DNA from: Octopus vulgaris | Lineage: Eukaryota | Assembly (NCBI GenBank): GCA_951406725.2 | Contig: OX597815.1 | Location: forward strand, 7,378,001-7,442,000 | Direction of reading: 5' to 3' | DNA length: 64,000 nucleotides | In this document: piece after piece, positions 4,558 through 61,329 of the stretch | Position numbering within the stretch: position 1 is the stretch's first letter | Layout of the letters: every line of letters starts with the position of its first letter | Program-made: the position numbers and the translations under genes | The notes under the pieces: generated by a model | Told to the model about the DNA's origin: nothing | The model's database searches: none | What the model saw: the letters and a program-made list of their open reading frames with translations, nothing else

Positions 4558-4947
4558 TCTCTCTATATAAAGCTGAAGTTGTCTGTGTATGGCAGGTTTG
4601 GTAGCCTTCAACTAACGTTATCTCCTCCGAGACCCTGCGGCGCAAGTTGACCAAAATTGAGAGTATGATAGAAGAAGGCTTGCTCTTCCTTCCGTAGAAG
4701 ATAAAATTCAAATCGGACCATGTTAACACCAAAAATTATTTACATCAAAAAGGTGCTTTTTTTTCTATGAAAATCCCTAGTTTTTACGATTTTTTGACTG
4801 CTGTGTCGCCATTTTTCGGTGTATTTCAACCAGAAAAATGTTCACTTAAAGAGAATAACAAGCTACATAATGCAAAATTTTTACTTTTCAAAAATTCCAA
4901 TTCCAAGGGTCGAAACAAACCCGAGCAACGCCGGGCGATACTGCTAG
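4558..4947 (+). mobile_element. Non-autonomous Helitron, second subfamily
   Basis: A|TC start; same 3' hairpin and CTAG|T as 1627-2186 but unrelated interior. Confidence 0.8.
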
Positions 4948-10844: not shown

Positions 10845-10903
<59 letters not shown>

Positions 10904-10985
10904 CAAAGTTGAGTTGTGGGGTATCGCACGAGTGGAATTATATATACGAAAGAAGGTTTGAAAATGCAATTTAAAAGATGTTTAT

Positions 10986-11030
10986 TTACTTAACCGGTTT
11001 CACTCTTTGGAAAAAGATTGTCAAAAGTAA
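10986..11030 (-). ncRNA. Type-I hammerhead ribozyme motif, U3:A8 variant (mirror copy)
   Basis: Exact reverse complement of 11157-11201. Confidence 0.7.
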
Positions 11031-11156
11031 CATAGAATATTATGAATTCAAAAAAGTTTGCAACAACCAATAATTATGTAAAAAAACTTTTTTGAATTCA
11101 TAATATTCAATGTGGCAATTATGTAAAAAACTTTTTTGAATTCATAATATTCTATG

Positions 11157-11201
11157 TTACTTTTGACAATCTTTTTCCAAAGAGTGAAACCGGTTAAGTA
11201 A
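11157..11201 (+). ncRNA. Type-I hammerhead ribozyme motif, U3:A8 variant
   Basis: UUACUU-UUGACAA-UCUUU(UUCC)AAAGA-GU-GAA-ACCGGU-U-AAGUAA: 6-bp stem I, 5-bp stem II, palindromic stem III. Confidence 0.7.
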
Positions 11202-11239
11202 ATAAACATCTTTTAAATTGCATTTTCAAACCTTCTTTC

Positions 11240-11343
<104 letters not shown>

Positions 11344-20588: not shown

Positions 20589-20656
20589 GACCGCGTGTGT
20601 ACCGTTGGCGATTTTTTTCCTCCGTCTTCGCTTCTTTGGATCTTTCCTTTTCCTAT

Positions 20657-20691
20657 GCTTCTGACGAAGAGCTCCGCTCGAAACGTTGAAC
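20657..20691 (+). ncRNA. Minimal hammerhead ribozyme motif, canonical core
   Basis: CUGACGA-A-GAGC(UCC)GCUC-GAA-ACGU-U; weak stem I (GCUU/GAAC); inside a ~200-bp repeat (20587-20793) embedded in (TA)n. Confidence 0.6.
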
Positions 20692-20807
20692 CCTCCTTCT
20701 TTCTTTCCTTTCCTCAGCGTCCAATAATACTATACTTGTTTCACGTCCTCGCGTTGTTGTGTTTTCTCTTTGTGTTTTCATGTTTGGATTAACTATATAT
20801 ATATACA

Positions 20808-23772: not shown

Positions 23773-24606
23773 AACCATTACCGTTGCCCATTCTAGGCAT
23801 CCCAGATGTAAATCAAGTTGAGGGATTTCTGCTCCGTCTCCTCGAAAATATTTCTGATTTGTGGAGTAACGAATTATATTTTTCTAAACTGCTCTCATAG
23901 TCCTGATTGTTGTTCATTCTCCAAAAATATTTTCAAGATGACATATATATTCATCCATAATACATTCCGGCAGATTCGAACATGAATATACTAATCGCCG
24001 TTGTATTTCGTCATTGAAAACTTCTTTCAGACGAAAATGAGTTCATAATATACTCGATTCATTAGCGTAAGAAGACTTTGGGACAGCCGGTGTTTCGACA
24101 TCGTTATGTCTCCTCATTCAAAGCTTTCTCAGACTATTGGATCTCAAGAGTTTGTGGCTCTTGTTTATAAATCCACTAAATTATTTGTTGATACGTTCTG
24201 ATATCTGCCAACCGATAATAAATCGGTATGTGCACACTGATTCACTTCACTCCTACAGTGGAATATATTTTCAGAATAACCCTGTTGTCTTTCCAGGTCA
24301 TAAGAACCATCTTTGTTGCTATCACGACTAAGACGCTTACCTCTTCCTACGACAATTGATGCGGCTATTTGAATATGACCCCGTCAAATGTGTGTATACG
24401 TCTACCTGAAGGACACAAATGGCCTTCAGGTAGAATTATACACACCCAAAGAAAATTTCCACACAAAACTTTTCCTACGCCATGAAGATGAGACGGAGGT
24501 CAAGTAACCTAAAAAGGTCTGTTGTCAGTAATTCAGAATGGAAAATGAGCCAAAACGTCAACATTAATATCAAACTCAAGTCGTGAATAAGGAATATGTG
24601 AAAGCA

Positions 24607-24965: not shown

Positions 24966-25907
24966 GTCCACGTATCTCGGGTGAGTTTTTTTTTTTTTTT
25001 TTTCATATATAAGATTATCTTTACATTAGTTCCGAGTTCGAACACATACAAAGGTTATACACCCATCCAGGAATAAGGTACCTGATAACGATGGGAGATA
25101 AACCAACCGAAATATCGTGCCGATAGAAGTATTGGGTACGAGCAAGACTGTGCTATTAAGAGATTTGCTTACCAATCACAAATATCCAGGTTCGATCTGA
25201 CTGGGCGGTACAGTTTGCAAGTGGCTTCTATAATTGCATAGGGCCGGTACAAACCATGTGAGCCAAACTAGGTTTGTAGAAACTATACTGAAACCCGTTG
25301 GATGTCTGCACCTACCTTTGGCTAGTAGGTATAATCCATTCCTGTTTAACATCACCATGTAGTTGGTATTTTTTTTAGCTGAGGTCACTTTATGCAACCA
25401 TTTTCACCAGTTCACCCCTTGTCTATATCAAGATCACCTTATCTCACACTAGTGTCAAAGGCTCTACAAAAACGCCACGAGCACTTTCCTTTCATCACTG
25501 AGAAAGCTATACAAGAATAACTTTAGAAATACATTTTAAAAATGAAGTTAAGAACTCGGAAAAATATATTCTTATTAAGACAGGGAAAAAACCCACATGA
25601 TGTAAAAGATTAAACGACAACTACTGCAGACGTCATATGAGAGCGAGTGTGGCTTAGTAACATGTATCTTGTACCATGTTTTCATGAAACCGCGAATAGA
25701 AGTAGATGTCCTCTTGCTTTGCTGCAATCATGACTAAGAGCAGAAAAAAAAAGAGAGAAACCCGTTCAGTATGACTACTGAATAGAGAGTGGGTTACACC
25801 AGAGCTTCTCAAACTATCTCATGTGGTGTACTGGCTGTTTCTTTTTTCCAATGTGCCAGGGACCGGTAATATTTCTTAGTAATATTAATTTATACCGGAA
25901 ACAATAT

Positions 25908-26196
25908 AAACAATTGCAGCGTGGAAGGTGTTTATAAGCCATTTAAGAAACACACAAAAACCGTTAGATTCACTTCAACATTTAAATTTAATTTGCCAAA
26001 ATATTTTCGTCGCTTTGAGATGCGACCTGTTCATTGACAAAACTGTGATGCAGCACGAAGATTTGTCAGTGAACAGGCCGCGGTCTCAAAGCGACGAAAA
26101 TATTTTGGCAAATTAAATTTAAATGTTGAAGTGAATCTAACGGTTTTTGTGTGTTTCTTAAATGGCTTATAAACACCTTCCACGCTGCAATTGTTT
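25908..26196. mobile_element. Inverted-repeat Penelope-like terminal fragment
   Basis: Near-perfect ~135-bp arms around an ~18-bp spacer; each arm carries a hammerhead motif. Confidence 0.75.
26061..26113 (+). ncRNA. Type-I hammerhead motif, G3:C8 variant
   Basis: AUUUGUCA-GUGAACA-G-GCCGC(GGUCUCAAA)GCGAC-GAA-AAUAUU-U-UGGCAAAU: 8-bp stem I; mirror copy at 25991-26042 (-). Confidence 0.65.
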
Positions 26197-27057
26197 TCTT
26201 TCCAGCACACGATCTCAGACCAGATCACTCGCTATGCAAGTACATTTCCGTATATATATATATAATGAATATGATAAAAGTTGACAATTTTTTCTTTTAT
26301 CTTATATTTATTTTGTAAACAAATAATACAATATTACATAAGCATTTTATAATGTTTCTTTCTTTTCTGGAAACTTACCGCGTACCGGCAGCTGATGGTT
26401 CGCGGACCGGCACCGATCCGCGGACCACCACTTTGAGTAGCACTGTGTTATACTAACACTCAGCTGGCAATATTTCATCGGAGTTGACTGGAACAACAAG
26501 GAACAACATAAAAATACAGCGCTTTGAACACTACTCTACCTGGTTCAAGAATCGAACTCACGACCTTGTACCGCGAGCCCAGTATCCTAAACACTGTGTC
26601 ACGCCCACTTCATAGCGTAGTAGACGCTACAAAAGGGTATGGAGAAGAGAGGTTGTATTGATTTTCTACAGATGTGTAGAGTCTCAAATCTGTTGGATGG
26701 ATATGGAGTTGTTAAGTGTTGTCTCTGTGGTCGTCAGTAATTGATTGGTACATTATTTGATCGACCCCGGAAGGATGAAAGGCAATACTAATCTAAGTGG
26801 GATTTAAGCCGAGAAGGTAAAAAAAAGCCGTAAATAAATGCTGCGAGGCATTTTTGCCTAACGCCAGAACGATTCTGCCAATCCGCCCCCCCCCCCACCC
26901 GCCTACCCCCAACAAAAAAACAAAACAAAAGAAAAACAAAAAAAGACTTGTACTAAGAAGTTAAAAGCGGTGACATCGTAAGTTTCTGTTTCTCCAACTT
27001 TTCTCTATTACTGTCACTTTCCCCCCCCCCCATCACCGCCATTACCCCACAAGTGCT

Positions 27058-40409: not shown

Positions 40410-42445
40410 GGAGGCGCAATGGCCCAGTGGTTAGGGCAGCGGACTCGCGGTCATAGAATCGCGGTTTCGATTCCCAGACCGGACGTTGTGAGTGTTTATT
40501 GAGCGAAAACACCTAAAAAAGCTCCACGAGGCTCCGGCAGGGGATGGTGGTGATCCCAGCTGTACTCTTTCACCACAACTTTCTCTCACTCTTACTTCCT
40601 GTTTCTGTTGTACCTGTATTTCAAAGGGCCGGCCTTGTCACTCTCTGTGTCACGCTGAATCTCCCCGAGAACTACGTTAAGGGTACTCGCGGTCATAGGA
40701 TCGCGGTTTCGATTCCCAGAACGGGCGTTGTGAGTGTTTATTGAGCGAAAACACCTAAAAGCTCCACGAGGCTCCGGCAGGGGATGGTGGCGATCCCTGC
40801 TGTACTCTTTCACCACAACTTTCTCTCACTCTTACTTCCTGTTTCTGTTGTACCTGTATTTTAAAGGGCCGGCCTTGTCACTCTCTGTGTCACGCTGAAT
40901 ATCCCCGAGAACTACGTTAAGGGTACTCGCGGTCATAGGATCGCGGTTTCGATTCCCAGAACGGGCGTTGTGAGTGTTTATTGAGCGAAAACACCTAAAA
41001 GCTCCACGAGGCTCCGGCAGGGGATGGTGGCGATCCCTGCTGTACTCTTTCACCACAACTTTCTCTCACTCTTACTTCCTGTTTCTGTTGTACCTGTATT
41101 TTAAAGGGCCGGCCTTGTCACTCTCTGTGTCACGCTGAATATCCCCGAGAACTACGTTAAGGGTACTCGCGGTCATAGGATCGCGGTTTCGATTCCCAGA
41201 ACGGGCGTTGTGAGTGTTTATTGAGCGAAAACACCTAAAAGCTCCACGAGGCTCCGGCAGGGGATGGTGGTGATCCCTGCTGTACTCTTTCACCATAACT
41301 TTCTCTCACTCTTACTTCCTGTTTCTGTTGTACCTGTATTTTAAAGGGCCGGCCTTGTCACTCTCTGTGTCACGCTGAATATCCCCGAGAACTACGTTAA
41401 GGGTACTCGCGGTCATAGGATCGCGGTTTCGATTCCCAGAACGGGCGTTGTGAGTGTTTATTGAGCGAAAACACCTAAAAGCTCCACGAGGCTCCGGCAG
41501 GGGATGGTGGTGATCCCTGCTGTACTCTTTCACCATAACTTTCTCTCACTCTTACTTCCTGTTTCTGTTGTACCTGTATTTCAAAGGGCCGGCCTTGTCA
41601 CTCTCTGTGTCACGCTAAATCTCCCGAGAACTACGTTAAGGGTACTCGCGGTCATAGGATCGCGGTTTCGATTCCCAGAACGGGCGTTGTGAGTGTTTAT
41701 TGAGCGAAAACACCTAAAAGCTCCACGAGGCTCCGGCAGGGGATGGTGGTGATCCCTGCTGTACTCTTTCACCACAACTTTCTCTCACTCTTACTTCCTG
41801 TTTCTGTTGTACCTGTATTTTAAAGGGCCGGCCTTGTCACTCTCTGTGTCACGCTAAATCTCCCCGAGAACTACGTTAAGGGTACTCGCGGTCATAGGAT
41901 CGCGGTTTCGATTCCCAGAACGGGCGTTGTGAGTGTTTATTGAGCGAAAACACCTAAAAGCTCCACGAGGCTCCGTCAGGGGTTGGTGGTGATCCCTGCT
42001 GTACTCTTTCACCACAACTCTCTCTCACTCTTACTTCCTGTTTCTGTTGTACCTGTATTTCAAAGGGCCGGCCTTGTCACTCTCTGTGTCACGCTAAATC
42101 TCCCCGAGAACTACGTTAAGGGTACTCGCGGTCATAGGATCGCGGTTTCGATTCCCAGAACGGGCGTTGTGAGTGTTTATTGAGCGAAAACACCTAAAAG
42201 CTCCACGAGGCTCCGGCAGGGGATGGTGGTGATCCCTGCTGTACTCTTTCACCACAACTTTCTCTCACTCTTACTTCCTGTTTCTGTTGTACCTGTATTT
42301 CAAAGGGCCGGCCTTGTCACTCTCTGTGTCACGCTAAATCTCCCCGAGAACTACGTTAAGGGTACTCGCGGTCATAGGATCGCGGTTTCGATTCCCAGAA
42401 CGGGCGTTGTGAGTGTTTATTGAGCGAAAACACCTAAAAGCTCCA
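40410..42445 (+). repeat. SINE C-derived 240-bp tandem array (8 units plus a partial unit)
   Basis: One full head at 40410; units start with ACTCGCGGTC at 40443, 40685, 40925, 41165, 41405, 41644, 41884, 42124, 42364. Confidence 0.96.
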
Positions 42446-43320
42446 TGCTTTTCTGCCGGTGGCACACATCCCACCGGCATATCATTGGGATCTGTCGGCG
42501 GCACATCAACCTTCACCGACCGTCTCCCATTTTTTCCTTTTCTTCTTTTATTTCTCTTCTCTGGGCTTGCGGTAGTCAGGGCCTCTATCGGCTTATCTGT
42601 GAGGTCTGCCTCCTCTTCCGCAACCTGTATGTCTTTTGGTGAGCAACCATTGTTGCTCGCCTTTCTTTTCCTTTTCGGAGAGGCGACCGCCTCCACTACT
42701 TCCTCCGTCTTCCCCTCCAATGGGGTTGGGGCGTAGGGCACCTTTTCTTTTTTCTTCTGCTCCAGGGCCTTACCGCAGCCCTGGGGGCAGTTCTTTTTGA
42801 TGTGGCCTGGTTCGAGGCACAGGGGACACTTGGGGGGAGCGACCCTTAAGAATCACCGGAATAAGAATCAGGGAATACTAGGTCTCCGGCCGACTGAGTC
42901 CAAAGGGTCAGAACTGCTTTTGACCCCGCCCAATCGGTCGCGGCCTCCACCCCGACACTGAGGAGCTTGGTTCCACTACCGCCCAGACCTCTACGAATGG
43001 TCTGTTCTATCCACTCAGATCGAATTCCGGGTGGCAGCCCACATACCCAAGCCCTCATTATTTTCTTCCCACAATATGTGGGAAAGAACAAAATCTCATC
43101 CCCTTCTAGGGGTTGACTTGCCGCAGTGCAAGCTTTCTCAGGGGTGTCAAATAGCAGCCGCACCGTTGCATACCTGACACCCCTGGACACAAAGTAACTT
43201 TTTTGCTGGCAAACATTTTGCCAGCTCTTTATCAATGATACTCTTGTCGAATAGGTCCGTAGTATCACCGTCCTCCTCTCAATGTTTTCAAGCCACTGCT
43301 TGGGTGGGACAATCTCAAAA
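42446..43320 (-). mobile_element. L1/Tx1-like LINE ORF1 (gag-like) fragment, frameshifted
   Basis: Zinc knuckle CPLCLEPGHIKKNC (42787-42828) preceded by an RRM-like segment (RAWVCGLPPGI) and followed by a basic low-complexity tail; clade is inference. Confidence 0.7.
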
Positions 43321-43321
43321 G

Positions 43322-43627
43322 CGGGTATCTTATAGTCGTGATTCATATCGAACCCTTCTGGGTATTAGCGCGCGTCTACGATGAGTCTACGATTTAAAAA
43401 AAATTTACCATCATTTTTTATTCCATTTTAATGCATTTTTTCGCTATTATATAAGAGAAGTAACTCTCTAAAAATGTCTACGATGAGTCAACGATTTAAA
43501 AAAAAATTTACCATAATTTTTTTCCATTTTTAATGCATTTTTTTGCTATTTTTTGGCTATAACTCTCTAAAAATGCTTATATAGTTATTTCCCTTACAAA
43601 CCGAGCAACGCCGGGCGATACTGCTAG
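43322..43627 (+). mobile_element. 5'-truncated Helitron
   Basis: Matches 1884-2186 including hairpin and CTAG|T. Confidence 0.88.
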
Positions 43628-43694: not shown

Positions 43695-44772
43695 AGGCAG
43701 AAAAAAAATTCAGGTCACAATGGTACTCCGGCCCTATTCGATCCCGGCTCCATTGCAACTCTCAATTTGATGGTAAAATCCAGTTCTTTGCTTGTAACTA
43801 AGTAAAAAAAAGTTTTTAATCTCTTCTTCAAATCCATAATTTTCGAAACTTCTTAGTTGGTTTGAAAACAACAATAATTCTTCTTCAATTTTTCTCCTCT
43901 GTCGAGAAACAACAATTTACTTCAAAAAGTTCCAGCTTGCTTCTCCGGCTGTTCAAACAGTCCCACCAGCAACAAGCCACACACACTTTGCTTGCAAAAC
44001 AAGCAACTAATTCACCGCCAAACGTAAGCGAAAATGCCCCCAGAGCAGGGCAGAATATACTGTAATAAAAATGAGACAATTCTACTCAGCTCAGAAAAAA
44101 CAAAATCGCTCACCCTGACGGCGACCTTTTTCTCTAAGACGGAGCTAAACAGCTAACCGTCTTCAATAAAGGCAGAAGAAATAAAAATACGTAAAGTGTA
44201 CTAGCCATCTGAATGTGGCTAGCCACTGGGGGTGGAGTGTTACTGACGCTTTTAGCCCCAGGAGATCAACGTCACCAGCTGGCCTTAGACACAATTTCAG
44301 TGCCCTTGTGTTATTTGCAAAGGGAGGTCATCCTCCCTCGAAAACCTAAGTGATACATACGGACTATAGTTTCAAGGTAATTGCCTCTCGTCAGCGCATG
44401 GTAAACACCGGTTTTCGACGAAGGAGACCCTCTGCAAATAATAATATTTAACGTTTTTCACAGCAACCACAGTCACTGATTTAGAAAAACTGTCTGAAAG
44501 CATTAATAAATCTCATATTAAAAGAAAGAGAAAGGAGGCAGAAAAAAATTCAGGCCACAATGGTACTCCGGCCCTATTCGATCCCGGCTCCTTTACAGCT
44601 CTCAATTTGAGGGTAAAATCCAGTTCTTTGCTTGTAACTAAGTAAAAACATTTTTAATCTCTTCTTCAAATCCATTATTTTCGAAACTTCTTAGTTGGTT
44701 TGAAAACAACAATAATTCTTCTTCAATTTTTCTCCACTGTAGAGAAACAACAATTTACATTGAAAAGTAGCT
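43695..44772. repeat. ~240-bp direct repeats flanking a hammerhead-bearing interior
   Basis: 43697-43936 is similar to 44538-44772. Confidence 0.8.
44356..44400 (-). ncRNA. Complete canonical type-I hammerhead ribozyme motif
   Basis: CAUGCG-CUGACGA-GAGG(CAAUUA)CCUU-GAA-ACUAUAGU-C-CGUAUG; GUC cleavage triplet. Confidence 0.8.
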
Positions 44773-45314: not shown

Positions 45315-46006
45315 AGGGAGTGCTTAAAAGTTCCTGGCTTTTGGTAAAAGAAAATACAGGAGGATCTATTAATTACGATTTTATCCAACGTATTCTCCTC
45401 TCTCCTCGCAGATTCACTCTTATTGTAGAGGTCCTTCAGTTTTTCTAAGCCATGTAAGTATCTAAGTAGAGATTTCAAACTTAAAATCTTCAAAGCCACA
45501 GTCGAACCAATTCTACTATATGGCTTAGAAACCTGGACGTTATCAAAGAAGCTTGAGAGGCGGTTGGATGGAACCTACACTCGCCTCCTTATGAGAGCTC
45601 AAAATCTCTCGTGGAAGCGCCATCCAACCAAAGTACAAATATATGGGAAACTACCACCTGTGTCATCTCTTGTGAAAGGTAGAAGAGTCCAGTTTGCTGG
45701 ACATTGTTGTAGAGCTGAAAACCAGGTAATTTCTACTCTTCTCCTCTGGAAGCCATCTGCTCGCGATACCAGAGGGCGCACACTCTCCTACCCTGATGTA
45801 ATCTCCAGAGATACAAGAATCCAGCAACAGGACCTCCGTAATGCCATGATGGACCGTGAAGTCTGGCGTAACATGGTAAATTCCATTGTCTCGACCACGG
45901 TCGAACGATGATGATGATGAAGCTCTGTAAAAGAACTCGGAAGTTTGGACCCTCAACCAGGCCTTTCGCGATACCCTAAAAGCCAGGGACTTTTCAGCAT
46001 CCCCTA
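45315..46006 (-). mobile_element. Mariner-derived MITE split by an RTE insertion
   Basis: 45315-45457 and 45920-46006 join to match 56593-56813. Confidence 0.75.
45458..45920 (+). mobile_element. RTE-clade LINE 3' fragment
   Basis: Open frame KLKIFKATVEPILLYGLETWTL..FAGHCCR..AMMDREVWR, (GAT)n tail, TSD-like AAGCCATGTAA / AAGCTCTGTAA. Confidence 0.88.
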
Positions 46007-60143: not shown

Positions 60144-60510
60144 AACAGCAACAGCATCAACAGCAATAACAGCAACGATTGATTGAGTTACAGTCGCCGA
60201 AGTCCGAAAATCCAGTAAGCTCGATTACGCCCGACGACGTGGCTAACACAACTTCTGAATTATAATACGGAGGAGGGTATTACGTTCCTCGCGTATTATA
60301 GAAGATACGAGGAAATTTTTAACAACGTGTGCAAGACGTAGTCGGATGAGTAGAAAGTCAGGCTTTTACTACGCCAGGTAGCTCCTACCGAACATGAGAG
60401 TTACCGTAAATTTATTCTGCTCAAAAAGTCGAGTGAGGCTGGTTTTCAAGAAACCGTAGAACTGCTTTCAAAAAATTTTTTGTGATAGAAGTTTATTATT
60501 CAACACCAGA

Positions 60511-61329
60511 ATGGAATGTTGGAACTTAACGAAAAATGAGGAGGATGGTTTTATCACCTACGCCAGAGCAGTCAACCGTATGTGCGAAAATTGCAAGCTC
60601 CAGGATCTCACTCAGGATATGTTCAAATCACTTATCTCTGTGCAAGGACTTATAGCACCTAAAGACAGAGAAATTCGAGTAAGAATTCTCTCGAAAATGG
60701 AGCAAGCGAACCAGGATGTATCTCTGCAGACCATTGCAGAAGAATATCAGACTATGGTAAACCTTAAACATGGTGTGGAAAAAATACATGATAAAGAGTC
60801 TTCAAGAATTCAAATGTGTCGTCCAGGGAAGCACGATAAAAAAAAAAATGTGTCAGGCTCCAATCTATATTATGGTTGTGGAGGCCTACACTACAAACAG
60901 GATTGTCCGTGTAAAAACAAAAAGTGCTATAGTTGTCAGAAGCTTGGACACAGGAGTTCTCAATGTAGAACAAGACTACGAGGCTCAAACATAAAAAGTT
61001 CTAAGGTGTTTCCAGTAGAGAGTGATTGCGACGGAAAAACAAGAAAATTAGGGCACGTAAAAATAAATGATGTGAATACCAAATTACAGTTAGACACAGG
61101 TAGTTGCATTTCGGTTATAAATGCGGATACTTGGAAAAACATTGGTAAACCGAGATTACGTAAAACAGCGAAAATAGTGCGTGATGTAACGGGCGATAGA
61201 TTTACAGTTCATGGGCAAAACATTTCGAGAGAGAGACACTCGAAGCAAAATTATTCGTTGTGGATAATACAATCAATCTGCTCGGCACAGATTGGTCAGA
61301 ACTGTTCGATTTATGGCACCGCCGCATAA
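60511..61329 (+). pseudogene. Gypsy gag-protease residual ORF
   Basis: 272-aa ORF with zinc knuckle and aspartic protease DTG motif, frameshifted at the end. Confidence 0.85.

Follow-up and report, generated by a model that had tools for sequence, protein, structure and literature searches.

A palindrome in an octopus MITE as a probable head-to-head insertion of Penelope-like element pLTRs with a predicted G3:C8 hammerhead

A stretch of 64,000 nucleotides of the Octopus vulgaris genome (contig OX597815.1, positions 7,378,001 to 7,442,000; the whole stretch is called here the window) contains a palindrome whose two arms, 25908-26020 and 26084-26196, are 113 nt long each and 100% complementary, and each arm carries a hammerhead-like motif of type I directed outward. 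An earlier note had described it as a twin-ribozyme palindrome with a G3:C8 core, nested in a hAT MITE. The locus raises the question of what kind of element makes such a palindrome, and whether its unusual 3:8 pair is the state of a family or the accident of one copy. From the comparisons of sequences described below we are fairly confident that the palindrome consists of two head-to-head pLTR copies of an EN+ Penelope-like element (PLE) that inserted, likely from one uncleaved RNA, into a pre-existing hAT-type MITE, at its TA tract, and that the fixed G3:C8 pair of the predicted hammerhead is likely under selection. The features of the locus are the following:

25792-25799 (+), left copy of the MITE target duplication, decayed; the right copy, 26446-26453, is identical at 6/8 positions
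25800-26445 (no strand), host hAT-type MITE, ~300 bp without the insert, with 16-bp imperfect TIRs at 25800-25815 and 26430-26445
25908-26250 (no strand), whole PLE insertion, two head-to-head pLTR copies in the TA tract of the MITE
25908-26046 (-), left arm, a pLTR copy with the short 3' end and a slight 5' truncation
25991-26042 (-), left hammerhead motif, with A3 mismatched to C8, a perfect stem II and a loop II lacking one base
26047-26250 (+), right arm, a pLTR copy running from the usual 5' start of the family to the long 3' end
26061-26113 (+), right hammerhead motif, with the predicted cut after 26105
26061-26068 with 26106-26113 (+), stem I of the right motif, 8 bp including one U-G wobble
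26069-26075 (+), core of the right motif from G3 to A9, GUGAACA
26076 (+), extra G between A9 and stem II
26077-26081 with 26091-26095 (+), stem II of the right motif, with one C-A mismatch
26096-26099 (+), GAAA of the right motif, followed by U16.1 at 26104 and U17 at 26105
26162-26251 (+), first 30 codons of the PLE ORF (MAYKHL...), spanning the tail
26197-26250 (+), one-sided tail of 54 nt, one-sided in 20/22 palindromic copies

The palindrome and its hammerhead-like arms are as the earlier note had them. The right arm has the GUGAACA core with an 8-bp stem I and a single mismatch in stem II, in the left arm stem II is perfect and position 3 is A (its core, AUGAACA, begins at 26034 on the minus strand and its loop II is one base shorter), and both arms combined restore the ancestor, the sum of the arms being the majority sequence of the family. 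That reading had gone without the 54-nt tail, the extra G before stem II and U17, all three of which are present. In folding predictions, stems I and II of the left motif form with pair probabilities of 0.69-1.0, whereas the right motif alone folds weakly (stem I ~0.14, stem II at most 0.11). Each arm of the palindrome bears a damaging change, and neither is likely to be active in this copy. Rfam gave no hammerhead match in the window, either at gathering scores or at relaxed E-values, and the relaxed search returned only models of long-hairpin miRNAs and noise. A type I hammerhead descriptor, composed after these window examples were known, has four matches in the window (26069 on the plus strand, 44394 on the minus strand and both arms of another palindrome at 11 kb) and one match in 100 block-shuffled windows. 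The 5' start of the unit (26047-26052) is complementary to the end of the tail (26243-26249), over 5-7 nt in the family majority; a short RNA might close on itself through these segments, and the complementarity could be due to chance.

The host MITE is found genome-wide as 954 first-look candidates. Of its other copies, 7/11 examined have both TIRs, a length of 290-306 bp and an empty TA tract at the insert site; with the same TIRs around an empty site, the nesting proposed before holds. Four of these seven empty copies have 8-bp target duplications with 7-8/8 matching bases. Short TIRs, an 8-bp duplication, a uniform small size and a high copy number characterize the host as a hAT-type MITE, the hAT assignment being a presumptive one, by the 8-bp duplication and the TIR style. 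The MITE flank is shared by 0/21 other palindromic copies, and the nesting is a single chance insertion. Both the palindrome and its location in the MITE are ordinary.

The coding parent of the insert was reached from a loose-end motif; 845 genomic copies have an upstream motif in common. A first search for the parent with the Pfam GIY-YIG model on the genome yielded 150 scored matches, and the 30 and 20 loci fetched from it corresponded to other PLE families. In the parent copies a 3' UTR of 1 kb accompanies an ORF that encodes RT motifs, a CX3CxxC linker, a CCHH motif and a GIY-YIG domain; one of these copies (L316) has an open frame of 1,025 aa with YVDD. The Pfam GIY-YIG model scores 25.4 bits on the parent frame (cut-off 22.6), while Pfam RVT_1 does not match the parent protein and matches a 54%-identical homologue weakly (E 0.004); the solved structures searched with the parent protein gave no match. 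By its short linker and other motifs, the parent would tentatively belong to the Nematis clade. The definition of EN+ PLEs includes the CCHH motif of the endonuclease and a CX2-5CxxC linker (PMC8557442), and the parent has both, together with RT and C-terminal GIY-YIG in one ORF, direct pLTRs, an inverted copy and a tail.

The complete layout is visible in L337, where an inverted truncated copy is followed by the 5' pLTR, the ORF (broken here) and the 3' pLTR; its same-strand pLTRs, at 4723 and 8984, lie 4.26 kb apart, and its three motifs are all G3:C8. L338 likewise has direct pLTRs, and its frame runs from the ATG of the pLTR through the tail into the PLE protein. This MAYKHL frame, which also matches the N-terminus of the ORF of a sister family, had been considered non-coding because of 3 synonymous versus 12 non-synonymous codon differences to an older relative, and it shows no third-position bias, but L338 and the sister ORF overrule that view. 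The tail is the start of the PLE ORF. The right arm shares 89.7% identity over 203 nt with the pLTR of an ORF-bearing copy. The identity of the element as a PLE pLTR, missed in the earlier reading, explains the palindrome. One stretch of 100 aa is encoded identically at 19 places, indicating that the parent subfamily is young. Most of the older short copies have no 3' UTR (0/73 loci match it), which would fit a reverse transcription that begins in the 5' pLTR and runs back to where the transcript starts. The parent protein shares 20-22% identity with a different PLE family of this genome, with a 781-aa protein. At L148 and related places a further young PLE family has U3:A8 and numerous intact RT-endonuclease frames of 781 aa, with a 359-aa frame upstream. 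The sister PLE family is also young (L318, 3013-7100 on the minus strand, and L319-L333), with intact ORFs of up to 1,312 aa.

We have searched the genome with a family pattern in which any base was allowed at positions 3, 7 and 8, at the extra base and at the first base of the loop, obtaining 1,425 exact matches versus 0 for the control. The alignment has 133 arms and covers 73 loci; removed beforehand were 1 duplicate place and 8 loci with copies of a single insertion that lies inside a larger foldback repeat. This foldback repeat, of ~4 kb, has captured and amplified one pLTR palindrome (L065, L066, L037, L044-L046, L052, L057-L060), and copy counts are inflated by it; two 2.7-kb pairs met in the search for the parent are also a larger foldback repeat bearing one copy. 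The family unit has ~205 nt, with a near-fixed 5' start and two alternative 3' ends, long and short, and loop II differs between its subfamilies. The sequences that continue the tail at non-TA places have nothing in common in 30 loci, and no tandem array of monomers was present in the 73 loci examined.

A foldback MITE, i.e., a DNA transposon whose long TIRs resemble hammerheads by chance, is hardly credible as an explanation of the palindrome. It would account for the length and perfection of the inverted arms, for the TA target and for over 2,000 first-look candidates, but in place of fixed symmetric ends and a fixed interior we found a one-sided tail and an inversion junction ranging from a few bases to several kb, which is why the palindrome is not a MITE. 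Solo and direct-tandem pLTR copies also occur in the genome, and the parent with RT and GIY-YIG refutes this reading.

How two pLTR copies come to lie head to head can be approached through the pairs themselves. Among 52 head-to-head pairs, 42 join a long and a short end, 8 a long and a truncated end, 2 two short ends and none two long ends. Rare changes common to both arms number 25 versus 213 private ones, when a rough hand estimate of the chance expectation is 1-2. Arms that begin at the predicted cut number only 2/133, and for one of them microhomology in stem I is the explanation; nearly all arms hold the whole motif, suggesting that the insertions derive from uncut RNA. In PAc, the Poseidon PLE of Anolis, AT-rich targets are cut on both strands and extended by the protein, reverse transcription starts at two internal sites bounding the tail, and insertion in vitro proceeds without need for cleavage (Frangieh et al., 2024, PMC11167929). 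As in PAc, the ORF begins in the pLTR here and two start sites would bound the tail, although the ORF starts ~60 nt past the motif here and inside the motif in PAc. The PLE protein of the octopus would cut both strands at the TA tract, and reverse transcription would be primed twice, at two start sites inside the first 90 nt of the ORF, both cut ends priming on one uncut RNA, one per start site. Each cDNA would then extend back across the uncut hammerhead toward the 5' end of the RNA, and the two cDNAs would be joined head to head, yielding the palindrome as a by-product. We lean slightly towards this double priming on one RNA with joining of the cDNAs.

A doubtful alternative, yet one to be taken seriously, is that a single cDNA folded back or switched template to give the inverted arm, priming itself at a short palindrome. 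The junctions show microhomology and short inverted repeats, stem I itself among them, such junction palindromes have been read as self-priming (PMC3846280), and the shared rare changes would fit equally. Fold-back alone leaves unexplained the bias to long plus short pairs (42/52, with no long plus long pair), as well as the fact that either arm of the head-to-head copies can be the complete one.

The proposal that the palindrome is a functional twin-ribozyme unit cleaving as a dimer is very improbable. The motif is certainly in both arms, and minimal PLE hammerheads have been reported active as dimers (PMC4209133), but the arms lie on opposite strands and cannot dimerise in cis, and the read-through RNA of the palindrome is predicted to be a single hairpin of -228 kcal/mol in which stems I and II have probability zero. 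In most head-to-head copies picked independently of the palindrome, one of the arms is incomplete, and the truncation often falls within the motif.

With the head-to-head pLTR insertion as the preferred reading, the question of function moves to the family. The family majority has the type I core (U4, G5, A6, A9, G12, A13, A14, A15.1:U16.1 and H17, with a U17 that obeys NUH), and an intact family arm forms stems I and II with pair probabilities of 0.6-0.99. Stem III could form six A-U pairs in a dimer, of which RNAcofold predicted none; it is non-palindromic in the older relative and in the sister family. The latter has a C in place of the conserved A9 in 19/19 copies among those listed, and the clade thus tolerates a core change expected to impair catalysis. 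The predicted ribozyme of the family is somewhat more likely than not to be active. If so, it would be slow and protein-assisted, acting on full-length transcripts with direct copies 4.26 kb apart, and not across the palindrome. The hammerhead of PAc cleaves only with protein, and an engineered C3G/G8C exchange partly rescues it (PMC11167929).

It is unlikely, on the other hand, that the hammerhead fold is kept without cleavage as a structural signal, e.g., for protein binding or as part of the pLTR promoter or of its translation start region, with the 3:8 pair serving for folding only. The C9 of the sister family with its non-palindromic stem III, an older relative that also lacks the palindrome, and insertions that carry the uncut motif would be in agreement with such a role, as would the absence of cut-site reads and a cleavage dispensable in vitro (PMC11167929). 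Against it, G5, G12, A13, A14 and the 15.1:16.1 pair remain the same in families with divergent loops and flanks, the 3:8 pair is part of the catalytically active fold (PMC3884650), and the PLE hammerhead that has been assayed cleaves with protein help (PMC11167929).

As the earlier note had anticipated, a genome-wide survey places G3:C8 as the family consensus. This pair is present in 90/104 aligned arms covering both positions, C3:G8 being present in none, and a hand count of the first 100 of the 1,425 matches gave 94 G3:C8 and 0 C3:G8. It is likewise found in 32/33 arms of loci chosen by the tail instead of the core, and in 26/30 loci chosen by the upstream motif (3 had no match and 1 was G:G). 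Contigs of four sequencing runs labelled as four other organisms contain variants at positions 3 and 8 that are all below 8%. A loose genome-wide G3:C8 pattern yielded 96 matches versus 170 for the control, which is no evidence by count.

The window contains further elements of interest for the comparison of 3:8 pairs, together with other retroelement fragments recognised by eye:

10900-11245, second head-to-head PLE-type palindrome with a tail and a U3:A8 motif (motifs at 11163 on the plus strand and 11024 on the minus strand)
20650-20700 (+) and 24075-24125 (-), further hammerhead-like motifs, one C3:G8 and one decayed (A3, G8)
42334-43364 (-), gag-like zinc-knuckle frame fragment, by eye
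44350-44400 (-), minimal hammerhead of the canonical C3:G8 type whose stem III is an 8-nt palindrome, missed by Rfam
45429-45911 (-), end fragment of an RTE-type LINE, by eye
60460-61329 (+), gag-protease frame fragment of an LTR retrotransposon, by eye

The family of the 11-kb palindrome is very young, with 21 identical 136-nt copies among 40 scored and 1,244 candidates; its longer copies have non-coding microsatellite-rich interiors, with no ORF in 20 loci. The region of the motif at 44350-44400 is 70% similar to a region downstream of a PLE endonuclease (L149), and the first of the two further motifs (20650-20700) matches the flank of PLE endonuclease loci (L134, L163).

Three different Watson-Crick 3:8 pairs in one window had been put forward as covariation. 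The G:C, U:A and C:G pairs do exist, but they belong to different families and prove little. No compensatory 3:8 change was seen among the aligned arms of the G3:C8 family. Within the family, the core varies at 7/370 versus 107/2,998 elsewhere in the tail-ascertained set, a purifying-selection test that was not significant. In the older relative (43 arms), 33/33 constrained positions are identical, with compensation at one pair of stem I; differences are found at N7, in loop II and in the spacer of stem III, and 96/130 positions are identical downstream. The P of 5e-5 for this comparison is naive, and the family was first spotted with a pattern that requires the core. In the sister family, whose protein is 54-57% identical, the corresponding pair is C3:G8 and a stem II pair is compensated, in 19/19 copies among those listed. 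In a 9-row alignment of related rows, both sides have changed in 5/14 pairs, 3:8 included, a number equalled in 84/500 shuffles.

Other PLE families of this genome extend the comparison. Family B (L188-L193, L199-L218), attached to a different PLE endonuclease and with the motif at the 3' ends of the PLE, has 78 A:U, 15 G:C, 4 A:C, 0 G:U and 3 other pairs by hand count among the first 100 of 158 matches. Its closely related subfamilies switch between A3:U8 and G3:C8 and are the cleanest natural pair for a test; they differ at 7 of ~320 element columns, positions 3 and 8 among them, in groups that were themselves defined by the 3:8 state. Another, very uniform PLE family (L154, L168-L177) has A3:U8 in 99 among the first 100 of 163 matches; its motif lies 285 nt behind a GIY-YIG domain, and in it stem II is short and stem III palindromic. 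U3:A8 is found beside a GIY-YIG ORF and in the 11-kb family, and C3:G8 at 44394. All four Watson-Crick 3:8 pairs are fixed somewhere among the PLE families of this genome. The independent 3:8 switches between homologues are two, each switch between families counting as one event. As the catalytically active fold includes the 3:8 pair (PMC3884650), a compensated exchange argues for selection on that fold, and the exchange between the homologues of this family suggests that selection has kept the motif. That octopus PLEs use the four Watson-Crick pairs with repeated compensated changes between homologous families is a tentative proposal, which we put at a little short of even.

Much of this architecture has precedents. 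The PLE hammerheads of PMC4209133 have, like those described here, a type I topology, a vestigial stem III, an extra base before stem II and G10.1-C11.1, and they also form opposite-strand pairs 100-700 bp apart with most copies truncated; the extra base of their consensus is H, not G, as opposed to the G found here, and a U3-A8 variant is described, whereas neither G3:C8 nor A3:U8 appears in the available part of that source. Inverted 5'-truncated PLEs (Arkhipova et al., 2013, PMC3846280; Craig et al., 2021, PMC8557442) share with the octopus family the head-to-head inverted pLTR, the tail at one end, the overlap of the pLTR with the ORF start and the TA targets, although their tail has 30-40 nt and that of the octopus 54-57 nt. 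The Hydra-clade rows of File S2 have C3:G8 in 26/26 and U17 in 10/26 cases (PMC8557442); the motifs of our family were not found in that supplement, in which line wrapping could hide a match. Animal non-LTR retrozymes (PMC7229834; bioRxiv 10.64898/2026.07.22.740005) are likewise short non-coding hammerhead repeats related to PLE pLTRs, but here a coding parent exists and the loci examined hold no tandem monomer arrays.

Natural covariation at 3:8 has been reported as U3:A8 (Perreault et al., 2011, PMC3088659), the only pair that the core variants of that paper name in the text available, whereas G3:C8 and A3:U8 occur here too. G3:C8 was engineered in PAc, as it also was in PMC3884650, whereas the young octopus family has it by nature. 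The literature searched on natural G3:C8 or A3:U8 pairs and on octopus hammerheads returned G3:C8 as an engineered pair only. A 2017 work of Lunse, Weinberg and Breaker, outside that search, reportedly contains a very large set of PLE-linked hammerheads with short stem III that cleave as dimers, and it may hold natural ones. The head-to-head architecture, the extra base, U17 and U3:A8 were already described.

Minimal PLE hammerheads cut poorly in vitro, and in the sole reconstituted system cleavage is dispensable for insertion. The octopus genome holds young ORF-bearing families for each pair type, including a full-length G3:C8 element, and thus the question of whether, and to what end, they cleave in vivo becomes testable on natural sequences. 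Standard descriptors and Rfam miss such motifs, and the number of hammerheads in animal genomes may therefore be underestimated. If octopus PLEs do use the four pairs as proposed, a large purine-3 class (G3:C8 and A3:U8) would escape searches based on CUGANGA, and the compensated changes would be natural evidence for selection in vivo of the catalytically active fold of PLE hammerheads. The identity of the pair would then perhaps tune the cut rate, leaving enough full-length RNA for copying.
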